From Candidatus Latescibacterota bacterium (GTDB taxonomy: Bacteria > Latescibacterota > UBA2968 > UBA8231), in assembly GCA_965223905.1 (NCBI GenBank), contig CBDCXV010000001.1, positions 448,001 through 512,000 on the forward strand: 64,000 bases of DNA. The letters are read 5' to 3'. Below are positions 48,972-54,969 of this stretch, one piece after another. The notes below the pieces were generated by a model. It was not told where the DNA came from, made no database searches, and worked only from the letters and a program-made list of their open reading frames with translations. A program made the translations under genes and the position numbers. Numbering within the stretch: position 1 is the first letter of the stretch; each line of letters starts with the position of its first letter.

Positions 48972-50936
48972 TCAGGTGGCGCTCGCCGCCTCCGCCGGCT
49001 CCGGGTTCAGCAGCGTCGCGATGTGAACCGCCTGAAACAGCGTCGCCGGCTCCAGCTGCGTTCGCAGGGCCCGCTTCCTCGGCAGCAGCGTCGTTTCACC
49101 AAGCATAGGGGGCGACACCACCACCTCGACGCGGCCGGGGTTGATGTCGAGGTTGCCCCGCGGGCACTTGGGCCAGACCTGGTGAATGCCGCGAAATGCC
49201 AGCGGCACGATCACCGTGTCCTGCGGCAGGTAGGCGAACAGGGCGTGCTGCATCGGCAGGATCTGCAGCGCGAAAGCGGCCACCGTCCCGGCTCCGTATA
49301 CCACTCCCGCACGCTGCTCCAGCAGCTCGGCGAACCGCTGCGTCGGGTTGCCGGTGTCCTTGCTGCGGCGCAGGATGACGTAGCCGTCCACTTCTTCGCT
49401 CAAGGTGTCGATGCGCTCCGGGCCGATGCCGATCAGCGAAAACTCCCTTCCCCCGATCCGGACCGCGGTGGCGTCGAGCAGCCGCTCCCGCGACAGAATG
49501 GTGCACGGCCGCGGCCTTTCCCATCCCATTGCCCGGCACAGCTGCGGCGACTGCAGGACGCAGTACATCACCGGGTGGTCGAGCAGGCTGAGATGGGTCG
49601 GCAGGAAGGCGACCTTGCGAGCCCCCGGCTCTCCCAGGCGCAACTCGCGGGCCATCTCCTCGAACAGCGGGTCGACGATCACATCCAGCTCGATGCCGAA
49701 CAGGTCGAGCACCTTGTCGCCCATGTCGAGCATGCTCTTCCACGCCTCCTCGATGCGCATCTGCTCCGGGACCTCGGGGCGCCAGAGCTTCATCTTGATC
49801 CTGCGTGTCTTGCGGAAGAGCCGCAGCCACGCCAGCAGCCGCGCGCGGCGTTTCCAGGAGGAGATCGTCTGCTTCTTTCCGACGCCGGGGTGCTCGAGGA
49901 AACGTCCTGTCTTGCCGTCGTGGAAAAACAGGGGCACCTCCACCGGGGGAATCTCCTCCCCGCCGCGGGCGCGCTTGAGCAGGGCGTTCGCCTTGGGGAT
50001 CAGGGCGGTAACCAGGTCGATCATGTCCCGCGTGAGATAGCTGTACTGCTGGCCGTACCAGTATTCGCGCGGCCGGATCTGGGCCGGATCCTCGAGGTGG
50101 GCCTTGAGGAACTCCAGCAGCATCCCCTGCGCCAGGCGCACGTGCAGCTCGAGCTTCTCCAGCCAGCGGCGCCGGATCTTGCCCCGCAACTGCGAGACGA
50201 GAAGGTCGAGGTCGGTGACCGCCTTCCATATGGAGATCCCGAACCAGATGAAGTTGCTGAAGGTGTTGAAGCGGACGGCGAGGTGCTCGCCGGCGGCGAG
50301 CATGTCGACCACGGCTTCGGCAATGCCGGTGAGAAGGTCGCGCAGCGTCCCCGTACGCCGTTCTCCCGAGGCGGTGGTGCAGGAGTACTCCTCGGCCCAG
50401 CGGGGATCGCCGGGGTCGGCGTTGCGGTGCACTCTTTCCGCGACCGAGCTCGCCAGCGCCAGGGGAGCGCGGGCGACGCGGAACTCGACGAGAGCCGCCT
50501 CTCCCGCGTCGAGGGGTACCGGGTCTTCGCGGCGCAGTGCTTCGAGGTAGACGGCCTGATAGAGCTGCAGGAAGTCGCGCTCGTCGCCGGCGCCCCGTTC
50601 CCGGAACTGGTGCTGGACCTGGGCGAAGAGGCGGTTGCTTTCGTGGTAGGCGGGAAGCCTTTCGCCGTAGCGTTCGTACGCTTCACCGAGGCGGCTGTCG
50701 CGGCGGGAGGGCGTGCCGTCGTAGATCTCGGCGATGAGAACGGCGCGTCTGGCGAGGGCCTCGGTGCCGGGCACCTGCCCCGGACCCGGGCTGCAGGGCC
50801 ATGCGACATCTTCGGGATTCCAGCCGGCGAAGTGGCCGTCGGCGCGGGCCACGCGCAGAAGCTCCTGCGCGGCTTCGTCGTACCTGGAGAGGATCTCCTC
50901 GAGATTTTCGCTGACTTGGGCGAGGGCTTCCTTCAC
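48972..50936 (-). CDS. Unknown N-terminal region fused to a PlsC-like acyltransferase domain
   Basis: PTHLSLLD (HxxxxD), VIVPLAFRG, PGRVEV in C-terminal third; GC3-rich coding signal throughout. Confidence 0.65.
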   Translation of the reverse strand: MKEALAQVSENLEEILSRYDEAAQELLRVARADGHFAGWNPEDVAWPCSPGPGQVPGTEALARRAVLIAEIYDGTPSRRDSRLGEAYERYGERLPAYHESNRLFAQVQHQFRERGAGDERDFLQLYQAVYLEALRREDPVPLDAGEAALVEFRVARAPLALASSVAERVHRNADPGDPRWAEEYSCTTASGERRTGTLRDLLTGIAEAVVDMLAAGEHLAVRFNTFSNFIWFGISIWKAVTDLDLLVSQLRGKIRRRWLEKLELHVRLAQGMLLEFLKAHLEDPAQIRPREYWYGQQYSYLTRDMIDLVTALIPKANALLKRARGGEEIPPVEVPLFFHDGKTGRFLEHPGVGKKQTISSWKRRARLLAWLRLFRKTRRIKMKLWRPEVPEQMRIEEAWKSMLDMGDKVLDLFGIELDVIVDPLFEEMARELRLGEPGARKVAFLPTHLSLLDHPVMYCVLQSPQLCRAMGWERPRPCTILSRERLLDATAVRIGGREFSLIGIGPERIDTLSEEVDGYVILRRSKDTGNPTQRFAELLEQRAGVVYGAGTVAAFALQILPMQHALFAYLPQDTVIVPLAFRGIHQVWPKCPRGNLDINPGRVEVVVSPPMLGETTLLPRKRALRTQLEPATLFQAVHIATLLNPEPAEAASAT

Positions 50937-51004: not shown

Positions 51005-52084
51005 TCAGGGCTTGAGGGCGCGAATGACGCGGGTGCCGTCCGTGAGCTCGCGCAGCTCGGGATCGGCGAAGCCGGCCTGGCGCAGCCAGTCGCCGTGCTC
51101 TTCCTCGGTGTACGAGCGCCCTTCCTCGTAGATGTTGAGGAAGACGAGGTTGAACAGCGCTCCTTTGGCAGGTGTCGTACGGCCGTCGTCGAGGATGCCG
51201 GCGCCGATGACGTAGAGGGCGCCTCCCGAGCGCAGGAGCCCGGCAGCGCGGCCGACGACCCGGGACGCCTGTCCGGGGTCCAACACCTGCAGGAAGGAGA
51301 CCATCAGCACCGCGTCGAAGGAGCCGGGGGCCAGCCGGGAGCGGTCGGGTTCCGGCATCGCCACCCGGCCGGCAGTGAGGTCCGCGGGGACGATTTCGAT
51401 TCTCTCCGCGGCCGGGGATTGCGAGACGAAGTCTCTGGTCACCTCGGCGACGTCGGGCAGCTCCACCGCGGTGGCATGGAGTTCGGGCAGTTCCTCGGCG
51501 AGGCCGATGAGGAGACCTCCCGAACCGCTGCCGATATCGGCGACGCGGCCGCAGCCGCCGAGCCACTCGCTGCCCGCCAGCTCGCGTCCTCGCTGGAGAG
51601 CGGCGGAATGCAGTCCCCCGAGAAAGGTGGTCAGCTCCTCTCGGGGCATGGCGGCGAAATCCTTCTCTGCAAGCGGCCGGCCAGCCCGGATCGAATCCGC
51701 GCTTTTCAGGGCGGCGTCCCAGAGGATGGCGAGCAGCTCCTGGTGGCCGGCGAGGTACCCCGCTTTTCCCGGCACGAGGAAGCGGCTGGCCTCGGGGCTG
51801 TTGCGGAAGCGGGGCTCACTTTCGTCCGGCATCCCGGGCGCGGCCGGTTTTTCGATGGCGAGCAACTCGACCGCAGCCAGGGCGTACAGCAGCTGGCCCA
51901 GGCGCCGGCTGTCGGCGCCGAGCCGATCCCCCAGTTCGGCCGCGGTGGCAGGACCGTTTTCCAGCAGTGCGAAAAGGTCGAGCCGCAACCCCGCCAAAAG
52001 CGCGAAGGAGGGCAGGATCTCGAGCAGCTTCTCGAGCCGTTCGCTGCCGGCTGCGTCTGTCGGAACCTTCTGGTATCTGGACAT
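51005..52084 (-). CDS. SAM-dependent O-methyltransferase with dimerisation domain
   Basis: LDLF..L..GP, FRNSP..SRFL, ADIGSGSG, RSYTEEE. Confidence 0.9.
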   Translation of the reverse strand: MSRYQKVPTDAAGSERLEKLLEILPSFALLAGLRLDLFALLENGPATAAELGDRLGADSRRLGQLLYALAAVELLAIEKPAAPGMPDESEPRFRNSPEASRFLVPGKAGYLAGHQELLAILWDAALKSADSIRAGRPLAEKDFAAMPREELTTFLGGLHSAALQRGRELAGSEWLGGCGRVADIGSGSGGLLIGLAEELPELHATAVELPDVAEVTRDFVSQSPAAERIEIVPADLTAGRVAMPEPDRSRLAPGSFDAVLMVSFLQVLDPGQASRVVGRAAGLLRSGGALYVIGAGILDDGRTTPAKGALFNLVFLNIYEEGRSYTEEEHGDWLRQAGFADPELRELTDGTRVIRALKP

Positions 52085-52131
52085 GGGGTCGAGTGGTATT
52101 TAGCGGCAAGTCCCGGGTAGGAAAGCGGCTG

Positions 52132-52500
52132 TTATTCCCCCTGTGAATTGGCGGGCCGCTCGGCGATTTCCAGGGTGTTGCCGTCCGGGTCGCAGACGAG
52201 GATGTCGCGCAGGCCCCAGGCCTGAAGCCTCGGCGGCTGTTTCACCGTGACCCCGGCGGCAAGGCAGCGTTCGTAAAGCCGATCGACCGAGTCGACGGAC
52301 ATGTGGCAATGCCCGTAGCCGGCGGCCTCCGGGTCGAGGCCGATATGCATGTCGACGCCGTCCCGGTGGAGGATGGCGAAACAGACCGGATCGCCGTTGG
52401 TAAAGGTCACCGCGAAACCGAGGGTGCCGGTCCAGAACTCCAGCGCCCGCTTCATGTCGCTGACGTGAAGGCCGGGGACTGCTCGGTGAAAGGTCGTCAT
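52132..52500 (-). CDS. VOC/glyoxalase/bleomycin resistance family protein
   Basis: LHVSDMKRALEFW..LGF, WGLR...DPDGN. Confidence 0.9.
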   Translation of the reverse strand: MTTFHRAVPGLHVSDMKRALEFWTGTLGFAVTFTNGDPVCFAILHRDGVDMHIGLDPEAAGYGHCHMSVDSVDRLYERCLAAGVTVKQPPRLQAWGLRDILVCDPDGNTLEIAERPANSQGE

Positions 52501-52809
52501 GGCTTTTTTCGGTGGAGAACAGCGAAAAGCATCCCGCCGGGGGATTTCCGCTGAAGGGCACCTTTCCGGCAAGAAGGCCGGGGTGTGAACGGAGCAGCGC
52601 AATGGGCCCCTGCTTTTCGAGCAGGCGCCGCTTTGGCCGAGTTTCCGAATTCCTGTGAAAGGTGCCGGCAATTGCGGCAAAAGGTCAATCGGCAGCTTGT
52701 CGACCTCGCGAGAGTGGTTCGCCCCGTCCTCGAAGCGCCGCCGGCGCGGCGCGAAATCCCGCGAGAGAGATTCGGTCGCGGCGGCATGCACAAATGGAGC
52801 CGGCTCAGG

Positions 52810-52847
52810 AAAAAACAGGGCCGGCCCCCGGAATGGGAGCCGGCCCT
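52810..52847 (-). terminator. Rho-independent terminator after the small-ORF pair
   Basis: Minus strand AGGGCCGGC...GCCGGCCCT stem followed by GTTTTTT. Confidence 0.75.
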
Positions 52848-52925
52848 TGTCGTTCCGGGAGGGACTCGAACGGATGCAGCCGGAGTTTCCGGATAAGCTT
52901 GTCGCAGGCTGCTATCTCTGCAGCG

Positions 52926-53042
52926 CTATCCCGCCTCCAGGGGGCCGTGGATGGCAAGCGTCAGGGACAGGGCCAGCACCCACCAGAACAACCGTTGAAC
53001 TGCAGCCGTCGAGGCGCTCCACATTCGCAATCTGTGAATCAT
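52926..53042 (-). CDS. Putative small hydrophobic protein (38 aa)
   Basis: AAAGGAG RBS 6 nt before ATG; MIHRLRMWSASTAAVQRLFWWVLALSLTLAIHGPLEAG. Confidence 0.5.
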   Translation of the reverse strand: MIHRLRMWSASTAAVQRLFWWVLALSLTLAIHGPLEAG

Positions 53043-53154
53043 CGCAATCTCCTTTTCATCGCATGGTCGGGTCGACGGAGACAATTGGATCCGTCCCCTC
53101 GGCAGGTTCTTCACGCCTTTCACGAGACCTGTGCCTCGACCGTTGCCGCGCCGC

Positions 53155-53238
53155 TCAGGTGACGAGCGGAGCGACGATGAACACGAAGAGGCTGACGAGT
53201 CCGTACATCAGGCCCTGGTTCAACAGCTCGCGTCGCAT
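53155..53238 (-). CDS. Putative small single-TM protein (27 aa)
   Basis: AAAGGAGG RBS 7 nt before ATG; MRRELLNQGLMYGLVSLFVFIVAPLVT. Confidence 0.6.
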   Translation of the reverse strand: MRRELLNQGLMYGLVSLFVFIVAPLVT

Positions 53239-53324
53239 GGGCATGCCTCCTTTCGGGTTTGAGGTTGCCTTCGATTCCTGAATCAGTATCTCTGCTGCTT
53301 CTCGCGCCTGGCGGTGCCGGCACG

Positions 53325-53357
53325 AAAAAGCCGCAGACACTCCAGGTGTCTGCGGCT
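53325..53357 (-). terminator. Intrinsic terminator/attenuator inside the leader
   Basis: Perfect 12-bp stem AGCCGCAGACAC/GTGTCTGCGGCT, 5-nt loop, then a T run. Confidence 0.8.
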
Positions 53358-53564
53358 CGTCCCGCCGGACAGGGACCCGTGAGGGGCCGGTCCGGTCATT
53401 TGCAGGGTCGTCGGCTCCGCCGGGCCGCACTCGCACACACCTTCATTTTTTCTCGAAGGAGAACTGGCTGAGTGCGATCGGCAGCGTTCTTATCTCAGCT
53501 CGTTCCTTCGGTTGTCAACAGATAAGCCATGCGTTCCTCGAGTCTTTGCATGGTGAACAGTTGC
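53325..53564 (-). ncRNA. Candidate sigma54-dependent sRNA or structured leader RNA (~240 nt)
   Basis: Bounded by a sigma54 promoter and an intrinsic terminator; alternative helices present; no convincing long ORF. Confidence 0.45.
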
Positions 53565-53575
53565 ACCAACCAATT

Positions 53576-53591
53576 CGCAACATTTGTGCCA
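53576..53591 (-). promoter_or_regulatory. Sigma54 (-24/-12) promoter
   Basis: Minus strand TGGCAC-AAATG-TTGCG matches TGGCAC-N5-TTGC. Confidence 0.75.
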
Positions 53592-53660
53592 GTTGCCGGA
53601 CGCAGAGGGTAACTCCCTGTGCGGGAAGCGGATGGCTTGTGAAGCGTTCCGCCGGGCTGG

Positions 53661-53714
53661 TGCAACGGGGGCAATTTCTGCAGCTATTGCAGGGGGTGCG
53701 CTGCAACAATTGCC
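53661..53714. promoter_or_regulatory. Putative enhancer (bEBP binding) boxes
   Basis: TGCA-like half-sites every 9 bp (53661, 53670, 53679, 53688, 53697) plus TGCAACAATTGCC at 53702; 70-120 bp upstream of the -24 element. Confidence 0.45.
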
Positions 53715-53922
53715 TCGCTGCCACCAAGTCCTCGGGACCGGCAGCAAGGGACTTGGCGCCGCGGACGGTCGTTTGCTCGCGGGTTATGTGCTGCCAGGGC
53801 GGGTAAGGATCTCGTGAGGTCACGTTTCTGCCGCTATCGCGGGAGTTTTATCTTTGGCCCTTGAAAGGCGGCCGATTGCCGCCGTTGAAATGCACGAAAA
53901 AAGCAGACGCGGAGGTGAGTTG

Positions 53923-54969
53923 TTGGGAAAACGCAGCTTCGTCAGCGACAACAACGCCGGCATTCACCCGGAGGTGCTGCAGGCGATGATCGACGCCAAC
54001 GTCGGTCACGAGGTGGGGTACGGTGAGGATCCGTACACGGAAAGGGCGGTCCAGGCCTTTCGCGACCACTTCGGGGAGGAGACCGAGGTGTTTCTGGTAT
54101 TCAACGGAACCGCTGCCAACGTCGTCAGCACCGGCGGTGTCTGCACCCCGTACCAGGCGCTGATTTGCGGCGACTGCTCCCATATCCACGTCTCCGAAAG
54201 CGGCGCCGTCGAGCGCTTTGTCGGATGCCGCGTTTATCCCGCCCCCACCGTCGACGGCAAGTTGACGGTCGACGCCATAGAGCCGCTGACCCGCGAGGAG
54301 ATTCCCGGACACAGCAGCCAGCCGCGTCTCCTTTCGATCACGCAGGCGACGGAGATGGGCACGGTATACACCGTTGAGGAGACGCGGTCGCTCGCGGACT
54401 TCGTCCACGAACGGGGGATGCTGCTGCATCTCGACGGGGCGCGTCTCGCCAATGCCGCGGTCGCCCTGGGACTGTCGTTGCGGGCGGTGACCCGGGACGC
54501 CGGGGTCGACATCGTCAGCTTCGGAGGCACCAAGAACGGCATGATGATCGGGGAGGCGGTGCTGTTCTTCGATCCCGGACTGGCGCGGGACTTCGGCTAC
54601 GTGCGCAAGCAGGGGCTGCAGCTGGCGTCTAAGATGCGGTTCATCAGCGCCCAGTTCGAAGCGGTGCTGCGCGGGGATCTGTGGCGCCGCACCGCCGAGC
54701 GCGCAAACCGGATGGCTCAGCTGCTGGCCGCAAAGGTCCGCAACGTGCCGAACCTGAAAATCCTCTATCCCGCCGAGAGCAACGGCGTGTTCGCCGAAAT
54801 CCCCACCCCCTGTGTCGCCGAGCTGCAGAAGGAGTTCTACTTCATCGGCTTCGACCTCAGCGGTCCCACCTGTCAGGTGCGCTGGATGGCTTCTTTCGAC
54901 ACGACCGAGGAGGACGTCGAGCGGTTTGCCGCCGCGGTCGACAGAATCGTCGGCGGCTACGCCGGCTGA
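53923..54969 (+). CDS. Low-specificity L-threonine aldolase family
   Basis: FVSDN, YGEDP, FNGTAAN, HLDGARLANA, GGTKNG, KMRF; GGAGG RBS before TTG. Confidence 0.9.
   Translation: MGKRSFVSDNNAGIHPEVLQAMIDANVGHEVGYGEDPYTERAVQAFRDHFGEETEVFLVFNGTAANVVSTGGVCTPYQALICGDCSHIHVSESGAVERFVGCRVYPAPTVDGKLTVDAIEPLTREEIPGHSSQPRLLSITQATEMGTVYTVEETRSLADFVHERGMLLHLDGARLANAAVALGLSLRAVTRDAGVDIVSFGGTKNGMMIGEAVLFFDPGLARDFGYVRKQGLQLASKMRFISAQFEAVLRGDLWRRTAERANRMAQLLAAKVRNVPNLKILYPAESNGVFAEIPTPCVAELQKEFYFIGFDLSGPTCQVRWMASFDTTEEDVERFAAAVDRIVGGYAG

Follow-up and report, generated by a model that had tools for sequence, protein, structure and literature searches.

Several small RNAs are transcribed from sigma-54-dependent promoters under the control of NtrC-family activators, such as GlmY with GlrR in enterobacteria, CrcZ with CbrB in Pseudomonas and Qrr with LuxO in Vibrio. 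Enterobacteria also have micro-proteins under two-component control (YncL, PmrR and YniD) that are about 30 aa long and combine a basic N-terminus with a single hydrophobic helix; MgrB is a further stress-induced single-span micro-protein of these bacteria. An RpoN-dependent sRNA is reported in Campylobacter (PMC11187230). In the Caulobacter FlbD/ftr system, enhancers lie downstream of the sigma-54 promoters (Mullin & Newton 1993; Gober & Shapiro 1992, cited in PMC3096577).

Here, we describe a locus of a sponge-associated Latescibacterota genome that shares features with several of these systems. Like GlmY, CrcZ and Qrr, it combines a TGGCAC-N5-TTGC promoter and activator sites about 100-150 bp upstream with a structured RNA that is a few hundred nucleotides long and has an intrinsic terminator at its end. 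Unlike these sRNAs, the RNA has no sequence or structure relation to them (no Rfam match), no Hfq or CsrA was found in the genome, and the RNA directly precedes two micro-ORFs without a recognisable promoter of their own, so that it probably gates them in cis. One of the encoded micro-proteins resembles YncL, PmrR and YniD in the features named above. As in Caulobacter FlbD/ftr, five genomes of a second genus (g18) have the pair of activator-site palindromes downstream of the sigma-54 promoter, where it would function as an enhancer; the locus differs from Caulobacter in its activator (another member of the family), in its motif and in its target genes.

Results

A conserved sigma-54-type unit in an apparently empty gap

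The window, that is, the whole 64-kb stretch of DNA analysed, contains an apparently empty gap that in fact holds a conserved sigma-54-type unit. A preliminary description had placed the following elements in it, and direct reading found all of them there, co-oriented on the minus strand:

53703..53713, minus strand: enhancer site 1 (predicted), GCAA-N3-TTGC palindrome GCAATTGTTGC, centre about -143 from the predicted start
53680..53690, minus strand: enhancer site 2 (predicted), imperfect palindrome GCAATAGCTGC, from direct reading
53671..53681, minus strand: enhancer site 3 (predicted), GCAGAAATTGC, 21 bp from site 1
53577..53591, minus strand: sigma-54 promoter TGGCAC-N5-TTGC (-24/-12), TGGCACAAATGTTGC, exact consensus match
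53322..53566, minus strand: leader RNA, about 245 nt, five predicted hairpins, non-coding, from folding and alignment
53325..53357, minus strand: intrinsic terminator 1, end of the leader, from direct reading, folding and alignment
53155..53238, minus strand: sORF1, 27 aa, predicted single-span membrane micro-protein, MRRELLNQGLMYGLVSLFVFIVAPLVT, from reading and coding signal
52926..53042, minus strand: sORF2, 38 aa, hydrophobic, R-x-(L/F)-W-W-x-x-A-L core, from reading and conservation
52810..52847, minus strand: intrinsic terminator 2, from a terminator scan

Comparison with relatives confirmed that the unit is real and conserved, from the activator-site palindromes and the promoter, through the folded RNA ending in a terminator, to the two tiny membrane-protein genes. 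Paired identity figures below compare this genome with G002 and G001, in that order, both of the same genus (g1). The spacers range from 22/39% to 85/74%. The presence of rpoN, which the preliminary description had left to be checked, was also established (Sigma54_DBD, 202.8 bits at C1:1104795-1105271). Because the elements keep high identity amid diverged spacers and rpoN is present, the locus goes beyond chance.

Relatives with the ltaE synteny keep the elements, in 3/3 genomes of genus g1 and in 6/6 of the g18 genomes in which the micro-ORF is present; each of the latter has a strict sigma-54 promoter, sORF1 and sORF2 beside a divergent ltaE. On these comparisons, the core that is conserved comprises promoter, enhancer and the pair of micro-protein genes. 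The leader RNA is specific to genus g1. Two opposite-strand ORFs (52655-53281, 208 aa, and 52662-53162) are not genes and are split into different frames in G002. The same goes for a 93-aa extension of sORF1, which G002 splits across frames. ARAGORN detected nothing.

The promoter shares its enhancer motif with two other loci

The promoter is the sole TGGCAC-N5-TTGC match within the window, where 0.09 were expected and at least one match occurred in 9 of 100 shuffles. Transcription is predicted to start near 53564-53566 on the minus strand. Identity of the promoter is 100/87%, with the -24 and -12 elements invariant in the three g1 genomes and all differences confined to the N5 spacer, which varies in G001. 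Genome-wide, we counted 36 strict matches against about 11 expected by chance, the latter extrapolated from the window figure.

These expected chance matches favour a reading in which neither the promoter match nor the boxes have a function, the region being a long spacer, 5' or intergenic, and the micro-ORFs are expressed from elsewhere or never. The RNA-library data are compatible with it as well. Four runs gave one contig each (52857-53010, 53012-53164, 53055-53213 and 53412-53665; 154-255 nt, no strand or end information), and their depth of 2-4 does not demonstrate transcription. The contig at 53412-53665 extends across the predicted start into the enhancer, part of which it covers, as would be expected from DNA carry-over or from a start further upstream rather than from a clean sigma-54 start.

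Against this reading stands the conservation of the -24/-12 elements and of the palindromes amid diverged spacers. The preliminary description had seen periodic "TGCA boxes" upstream of the promoter; boxes are indeed present, but they are really GCAA-N3-TTGC palindromes. Three putative activator sites precede the -24 element by 90-122 bp, within looping distance for a predicted activator, in a block that is 90/76% identical. Site 1 has the same letters in G002 and G001, and site 2 in G001 is a perfect GCAATTGTTGC. The strict palindrome has 38 copies in the genome, and at 3 of the 36 strict sigma-54 promoters one is found 101-122 bp before the -24 element (0.04 expected). Searching with the composite palindrome and promoter pattern gave three loci, orthologous across G000, G001 and G002, with 0 matches for the reversed control, and across the bacterial family it gave 34 matches in 24/76 genomes, again with 0 for the control. 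This recurrence at orthologous loci also speaks against a non-functional match, as does the independent sigma-54 promoter that precedes the same gene pair in genus g18. We therefore regard a non-functional promoter as very improbable.

The other two loci suggest a regulatory context. On another contig, C11, the promoter lies directly behind a gene with Response_reg, Sigma54_activat and HTH_8 domains and drives a PTS_EIIA_2 (PtsN-like) gene and a sigma-70-family gene, while the promoter of the third locus drives another sigma-70-family gene. The layout of regulator, enhancer, promoter, EIIA and sigma genes is also present in the g18 genome G019. The regulator gene (REC + Sigma54_activat + HTH_8) ends at C11:1891651 and adjoins an identical enhancer and promoter; from this gene adjacency alone, the NtrC-type response regulator that it encodes is the likely activator of our unit. 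The genome has 16 strong Sigma54_activat genes, a number that counts against a firm assignment. No bona fide activator gene was found within the 64-kb window, and the enhancer motif links the unit to a three-promoter regulon, so the locus is not the "self-contained" system first proposed.

The position of the enhancer differs between genera. The palindrome pair (GCAA-N3-TTGC, N21, GCAG-N3-TTGC) is also present in the five g18 genomes, 60-120 bp downstream of the sigma-54 promoter and inside the leader. In genus g1 and in G086, the pair is upstream of the promoter.

A terminator-ended leader RNA in genus g1

The leader folds with a minimum free energy of -95.5 kcal/mol (z = -2.26; 3/200 shuffles fold equally well) and is 96/81% identical, above its flanks. 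Mean column identity in the three genomes is 93%, and the indels are not multiples of three; since they break the frame, we consider the leader non-coding. A candidate 18-aa leader peptide (ATG at 53552) was rejected, a 1-nt insertion in G002 shifting its frame. Terminator 1, described earlier as a perfect 12-bp hairpin, has an 11-bp G+C-rich stem at 53356-53330 (12 bp counting an A-U pair), and TTTTT comes next at 53329-53325. The stem is retained by 3/3 g1 genomes, among which one pair varies between G-C, A-U and G-U and the U-run between 5 and 6. Although read directly and folded, terminator 1 is missing from the output of the consensus terminator scan, in our reading because the stem extension runs into the T-run.

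Among the three closely related leader sequences, 14 of the 73 predicted pairs vary. In the automatic alignment, 6 of these are broken in G001, and a two-sided change is seen at just one; realigning hairpin 4 by one base, done by eye, adds a second compensatory change. When cut before the 3' arm of the terminator, the leader is predicted to take an alternative fold in which the 5' arm of the terminator pairs with the 3' arm of hairpin 3. This alternative fold of the shortened leader is a computation and not evidence of regulation.

Searches for related RNAs point to a narrow distribution. No Rfam 15 family reached its gathering score (best score in 52300-54100, 19.4 bits against thresholds of 40-111), and five related loci likewise gave nothing at threshold. 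When 76 genomes from the bacterial family were searched with a covariance model of the leader, the three g1 copies alone were recovered, weak matches at E = 0.09 and 0.86 being dismissed. Run without filters on 11 other sORF1 loci, it gave hairpin-level matches only (at most 11.3 bits). Eleven metagenome contigs with a 19-base word of the leader were chance matches, none passing the model at E up to 1. By these searches, the leader RNA is restricted to genus g1. Independently of g1, G086 has a long leader whose terminator lies about 50 nt before sORF1. The five g18 genomes have no U-tract terminator and have the enhancer pair downstream of the promoter, and the gate therefore lies outside the conserved core.

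We asked how these data fit a 245-nt RNA that is an independent sigma-54 gene for a trans-acting sRNA, regulating mRNAs or sequestering a protein, with the micro-ORFs as separate genes behind an unrecognised promoter. Such an RNA would be discrete, as this one is, bounded by a promoter at its start and by a strong terminator at its end, and its conservation above the flanks agrees with this. In g18, the micro-ORFs are present and the RNA is absent, so the two are separable. Two conserved A/G-GGAAC motifs, located in the loops of hairpins 1 and 2, also suit a trans-acting function. However, neither Hfq (PF17209) nor CsrA (PF02599) had a match in this 93.6%-complete genome. A CsrA-sponge reading, prompted by the GGA loops, of which the leader has only two that are conserved, was dropped as no CsrA gene was found. 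The lack of an Rfam match also counts against a trans-acting sRNA. Duplexes of the leader with the start regions of sORF1, sORF2, the downstream VOC (glyoxalase-family) gene, the C10 sigma-70-family gene and the PtsN-like gene were no better than with shuffled targets, 17-37 of 40 shuffles performing equally well. Finally, the promoter scan found no sigma-70-like promoter across 52000-54500, and hence none between terminator 1 and sORF1; the sORFs would therefore depend on read-through. Taken with the points in its favour, a separate trans-acting sRNA is possible but rather unlikely.

Two micro-protein genes behind the leader

sORF1 has GGAGG 7 nt upstream of its ATG, an alternative in-frame ATG at 53244, and 92/95% identity. 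In G002, its start codon is ATC, so that the ATG 6 nt upstream would be needed, only 1 nt from the Shine-Dalgarno sequence. Of the codon differences, 38% are synonymous in frame, compared with 15% and 9% when the frame is shifted, a coding signature in the aligned genes. The signal is weaker for sORF2 (25% against 18% and 6%), which has AAGGAG 6 nt upstream of its ATG and 90/83% identity. In genera g1 and g18, 9/9 loci have the sORF2 reading frame with its Shine-Dalgarno sequence, and in each it closely follows sORF1. tblastn with sORF2 was significant in g1 only; the homologues in the second genus lie beside the sORF1 homologue, behind a sigma-54 promoter and next to ltaE. By eye, the 47-aa second ORF of the g14 type-A loci has no evident similarity to sORF2. 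A complex prediction with the sORF1 and sORF2 homologues of G019 scored 0.03, which speaks neither for nor against binding. Terminator 2 (52847-52817, 13 pairs, then a T-run) is present here as described earlier and 84% identical in G001, but it is missing in G002, where a deletion spanning window positions 52902-52695 takes it out.

The sORF1 family was found in 38/76 genomes of the bacterial family and in 0/92 genomes from 13 other families of the phylum, and it forms 44 clusters among 1.84 billion representative proteins. The closer set has 13 invariant residues. Searched against Pfam (E up to 1) and NCBIfam (E up to 10), sORF1, sORF2 and the 30-aa G004 homologue matched 0 families. By language-model features, the nearest ESM Atlas clusters are YncL, PmrR and YniD, with scores of 0.80-0.83, where 0.9 marks more than a lead; unlike these proteins, sORF1 has no Pfam or NCBIfam match, and its MRRExxNQGLMY motif is restricted to one Latescibacterota family. 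In databases, the sole name given to its homologues is "hypothetical protein". The idea that gene callers miss the sORFs needs correction, as homologues of sORF1 are called elsewhere, but these calls are unnamed. Judged from these searches, sORF1 represents an unnamed micro-protein family confined to one bacterial family.

The peptides have the size of type I toxins and a single hydrophobic span, and a structured RNA gene adjoins them, which recalls a type I toxin-antitoxin-like module where sORF1 and/or sORF2 would be restrained by the adjacent RNA. However, this RNA is upstream and co-directional, neither antisense nor overlapping, and has no significant complementarity to the start regions. 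Most of the loci that carry the peptide do so without the RNA. Moreover, sORF1 is vertically conserved family-wide with its invariant residues, occurs in one copy in this genome and 1-2 in others rather than as a patchy multi-copy element, and in genus g14 lies beside ssb and dnaN, a stable housekeeping neighbourhood. A toxin-antitoxin function is thus highly unlikely.

Discussion

We consider it reasonably likely, from the arrangement and conservation of its elements, that the locus is an enhancer-dependent sigma-54 operon for two membrane micro-proteins, gated in genus g1 by a structured leader that ends in a terminator. An NtrC-family response regulator, likely the REC-AAA+-HTH protein of C11, would bind at the GCAA-N3-TTGC palindromes, which precede the start by 110-145 bp, and activate RNA polymerase-sigma-54 at TGGCAC-N5-TTGC. 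Transcription would begin near 53565, and the first product would be the 245-nt RNA with its five hairpins, ending at the strong intrinsic terminator. Most transcripts are expected to end there as a stable short RNA, and those that read through would continue to terminator 2 and include both sORFs, each of which has a ribosome-binding site of its own. The leader would therefore act as a gate (attenuator) on expression of the micro-proteins, with termination that is partial and presumably regulated, and the micro-proteins may have their role in the membrane.

Because the regulon also holds two sigma-70-family genes and a PtsN-like EIIA gene, the unit probably belongs to a response to stress or nutrients. 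A wider reading can be offered as a tentative suggestion: a lineage-specific stress regulon would join the micro-protein pair to an NtrC-type regulator and sigma-54, together with two alternative sigma factors and a PtsN-like protein. It is conceivable, at the same tentative level, that the 245-nt RNA newly arose in g1, between the promoter and the micro-protein genes, as a new attenuator or riboregulator free of Hfq and CsrA. No more confidently, one may suppose that the enhancer moved from downstream to upstream between genera and that the MRRExxNQGLMY and R-x-L-W-W proteins share a membrane target.

The locus overturns no principle and is a clean new instance, not a new type of system. It gives a testable, compact case of a sigma-54 promoter followed by a terminator-gated leader and micro-protein genes in an organism in which neither Hfq nor CsrA was found, and a natural case of the same enhancer pair standing upstream of a sigma-54 promoter in one genus and downstream in another. 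The catalogue of small proteins gains a conserved family of 27-31 aa that ordinary annotation partly missed. For this uncultured phylum, a regulon can be rebuilt from sequence alone, with a likely regulator, the motif of its enhancer, three promoters and, downstream of them, two sigma factors.

A conserved sigma-54 unit between ltaE and a glyoxalase-family gene

The unit occupies a 1.4-kb gap between a Beta_elim_lyase gene and a glyoxalase-family (VOC) gene in G000, the Candidatus Latescibacterota genome under study (7.9 Mb, 64% G+C, 11 contigs); the window covers C1:448001-512000 of this assembly. The preliminary description had proposed a sigma-54-driven unit with a leader, two micro-proteins and terminators, and direct reading of the sequence located every listed element on the minus strand where it had been placed. 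Its "TGCA boxes" resolved into three 11-bp sites, and rpoN, whose presence it had left to be confirmed, was found in the genome.

Features of the unit and its flanks (window coordinates)
ATG at 53890, plus strand: Beta_elim_lyase gene (ltaE-like), one flank of the gap
53713-53703, minus strand: enhancer site 1, GCAATTGTTGC, from sequence reading
53690-53680, minus strand: enhancer site 2, GCAATAGCTGC, from sequence reading
53681-53671, minus strand: enhancer site 3, GCAGAAATTGC, from sequence reading
53591-53577, minus strand: sigma-54 promoter, TGGCACAAATGTTGC, from sequence reading
about 53566 to 53322, minus strand: leader RNA, predicted fold with five hairpins
52847-52817, minus strand: terminator 2, listed by the consensus terminator scan
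ATG at 52500, minus strand: glyoxalase-family (VOC) gene, other flank of the gap

The strict promoter pattern TGGCAC-N5-TTGC occurs once in the 64-kb window against 0.09 expected (at least one match in 9 of 100 shuffles), and 36 times in the whole genome. No sigma-70-like promoter was found on either strand between 52000 and 54500. Terminator 1, the last leader hairpin, has a G+C-rich stem of 11-12 bp with UUUUU after it; it was absent from the list of the consensus scan, though terminator 2 was listed there.

We searched the 931-base unit in 41 genomes, G000 included, and found it in both other species of the genus, G002 (90% identity) and G001 (82%); G004 gave a 60-base match only, corresponding to sORF1. 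The unit is real and conserved. Its footprint was taken from a three-way alignment of G000, G002 and G001 and from per-segment identities, with G000 as reference.

Identity of each segment to G002 / G001
ltaE-to-enhancer spacer: 88 / 39%
Enhancer block: 90 / 76%
Promoter: 100 / 87%, every difference inside the N5 spacer
Leader: 96 / 81%
sORF1: 92 / 95%
sORF2: 90 / 83%
Stretch after sORF2: 22 / 39%

G002 lacks the sequence corresponding to 52902-52695, which includes terminator 2. The long opposite-strand ORFs in the gap are not genes, being broken across different frames in G002, and a 93-codon upstream extension of the sORF1 frame is broken there in the same way.

RNA libraries containing parts of the stretch were labelled as sponge metagenome. 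Four sponge metatranscriptome runs gave one contig each (52857-53010, 53012-53164, 53055-53213 and 53412-53665; 154-255 nt, depth 2-4, strand and ends not readable), the last of which spans the predicted transcription start.

The two micro-proteins

Both sORF1 and sORF2 are real genes. By tblastn, the sORF1 peptide (MRRELLNQGLMYGLVSLFVFIVAPLVT) matched in 38 of the bacterial family's 76 genomes, spread over 6 of 18 genera; its profile found none in the 92 genomes searched outside the family, which represent 13 other families of the phylum. When one genome for each of 185,579 species was scanned with a peptide pattern, 46 loci were returned, all in MAGs of the Latescibacterota group (40 labelled Candidatus Latescibacterota, 6 under the older Gemmatimonadota/Gemmatimonadetes). 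Thirteen residues are invariant across ten distinct sequences, and among 34 distinct nucleotide versions the synonymous share of codon differences was 38% in frame versus 15% and 9% when the frame was shifted. Against 1.84 billion representative proteins the profile matched 44 clusters (E up to 1e-3), whose members were 29-33 aa long or were longer calls with sORF1 at their extreme C-terminus; we read the latter as over-extended starts. "Hypothetical protein" was the sole name in the 10 clusters looked up, and neither Pfam nor NCBIfam had a model. In G002, ATC replaces the sORF1 ATG; an alternative in-frame ATG lies 6 nt upstream in all three genomes of the genus, 1 nt from GGAGG, and P0009, a database relative, is called from the upstream ATG.

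For sORF2, significant tblastn matches were limited to the genus. Weak matches in genus g18 sit directly behind sORF1 homologues, in 43-47-aa ORFs with a Shine-Dalgarno sequence, and reading of the loci showed an ORF of this kind with the core R-x-(L/F)-W-W-x-x-A-L in 9 of 9. The codon signal was weaker than for sORF1 (25% versus 18% and 6%).

A candidate regulon of three promoters

G000 has 38 copies of the strict palindrome GCAA-N3-TTGC. When the 220 bp preceding each of the 36 strict sigma-54 promoters were searched, three promoters had it, at 101-122 bp before the -24 element, against 0.04 expected.

Promoters with the palindrome and a strict sigma-54 promoter
Unit in the window (contig C1), minus strand
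C10:1740480, minus strand: leader of about 235 nt, then a gene with Sigma70 regions 1.2, 2, 3 and 4
C11:1891791, plus strand: directly behind histidine-kinase and Response_reg + Sigma54_activat + HTH_8 genes; followed by PTS_EIIA_2, then a second sigma-70-family gene

A composite pattern (palindrome, 85-115 bases, promoter) matched exactly the three loci of this list in G000 and their orthologues in G002 and G001, one locus in G019 and none in G089 (both of g18), and the reversed control matched nothing in these five genomes. The G019 match also has the layout regulator-enhancer-promoter-EIIA-sigma. Across the 76 family genomes there were 34 matches in 24 genomes and none for the control. No strong Sigma54 activator gene lies in the window; the genome has 16, the nearest about 89 kb away. 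Because of its gene adjacency, we infer that the NtrC-type regulator on C11 probably binds the palindrome and activates all three promoters.

The C11 locus (C11:1889468-1893305) comprises histidine kinase, NtrC-type regulator, palindrome, sigma-54 promoter, PTS_EIIA_2 (PtsN-like) and sigma-70-family factor, and at C10:1738966-1742081 a second such factor stands behind a matching enhancer-plus-promoter arrangement. Leaders at both loci carry additional GCA-N5-TGC-like sites downstream of the promoter.

Separately, near-identical sigma-54 promoters with conserved flanks form three families in G000, of 6, 5 and 4 copies. Members of one family stand before secreted-looking paralogues of about 790 aa; those of the remaining two come in pairs, 0.7-3.5 kb apart, before paralogous exported-looking proteins.

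Near-identical sigma-54 promoters
Single sites: C1:1620128(-), C9:415973(+), C9:822949(+), C9:835524(+), C10:100136(-), C11:64238(-)
Pairs: C2:595582/597867, C10:1307652/1311163, C11:694663/695437, C11:1219079/1219727

The module in other genera

Six g18 genomes (G019, G084, G086, G089, G090 and G091) contain the module, though their leader differs: divergent ltaE, strict TGGCAC-N5-TTGC promoter, leader, sORF1, sORF2 and, about 20 nt on, an O-methyltransferase gene. Five of the six leaders contain the pair GCAAAGATTGC, N21, GCAG(A/G)AATTGC, downstream of the promoter and with the spacing found between sites 1 and 3 in the window. Enhancer elements downstream of sigma-54 promoters, as in these five genomes, reportedly have a precedent in Caulobacter. 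Unlike them, G086 has a palindrome upstream of the promoter; its leader of about 400 nt has a terminator at its end, about 50 nt before sORF1.

The g18 promoter lies about 87 nt (own count) from the g18 ltaE start. In the window, TGGCAG-N5-AACC (53796-53782, minus strand) stands 94 nt from the ltaE start; it may be what is left of a decayed ancestral promoter that lay upstream of the enhancer, and showed no conservation in G001 or G002. A 654-aa protein (48972-50936, minus strand; no Pfam match even at E up to 5) is 59% identical to its g18 orthologue, with its position downstream of an O-methyltransferase gene kept.

In genera g3 and g14, sORF1 paralogues have sigma-70-type promoters and adjoin ssb or dnaN. 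No sigma-54 promoter was found within 900 bp of sORF1 in the 27 loci examined, a two-mismatch match at -708 in L033 being the sole near-match and discounted; the G047 and G006 loci likewise had none. In two g14 type-A loci (L010, L020) a 27-aa sORF1 paralogue precedes a hydrophobic ORF of 47 aa, then a small basic protein (helix-turn-helix-like on our reading) and ssb, and the array diverges from a glyoxalase-like gene; a glyoxalase-family gene also adjoins the unit in the window. L011 (G004; minus strand, about 1680-1990), L028 and L033 (both g14) share a conserved RNA-like element with a strong terminator and compensatory-looking hairpin changes, between dnaN upstream and a 30-aa sORF1 paralogue downstream. 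Its one Rfam match, to Ms1, was below threshold (24.3 bits versus 162), and ARAGORN found nothing. About 330 nt upstream of the paralogue in L028 and L033, the palindrome TGAAC-N4-GTTCA, which we take to resemble the GAAC-N4-GTTC type of LexA operator, overlaps a TTGACA-type promoter.

The leader RNA

The predicted leader fold has a minimum free energy of -95.5 kcal/mol (z = -2.26), equalled by 3 of 200 shuffles. Since its indels across the three genomes have lengths other than multiples of three, and since an 18-codon frame opening at 53552, considered as a leader peptide, is shifted in G002, the leader is non-coding. With three sequences covariation is almost uninformative: 14 of 73 pairs vary, of which 8 remain paired and 6 are broken in G001 under automatic alignment, with one two-sided change. 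Trained on the three copies, a covariance model matched those copies alone among the 76 family genomes. Run without filters on 11 other sORF1 loci, it gave matches at hairpin level at most, and it found nothing in 11 metagenome contigs sharing a 19-base word. The unit belongs to no curated RNA or protein family among those checked.

When the terminator 3' arm was removed, the predicted fold joined the terminator 5' arm to the 3' arm of hairpin 3, and an antiterminator conformation is possible. The leader would be a cis-acting gate on the sORFs and would leave a stable short RNA as well. Alternatively, it could be an independent trans-acting sRNA. Searches of the G000 genome found no Hfq and no CsrA, and complementarity of the leader to five start regions was not better than in shuffles. 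Since no promoter of their own is recognisable for the sORFs, and since G086 has an analogous design, we favour the cis-acting gate with a stable short RNA over the trans-acting sRNA. By analogy, the unit would work like sigma-54-dependent regulatory RNAs with NtrC-family activators, and like two-component-induced membrane micro-proteins.
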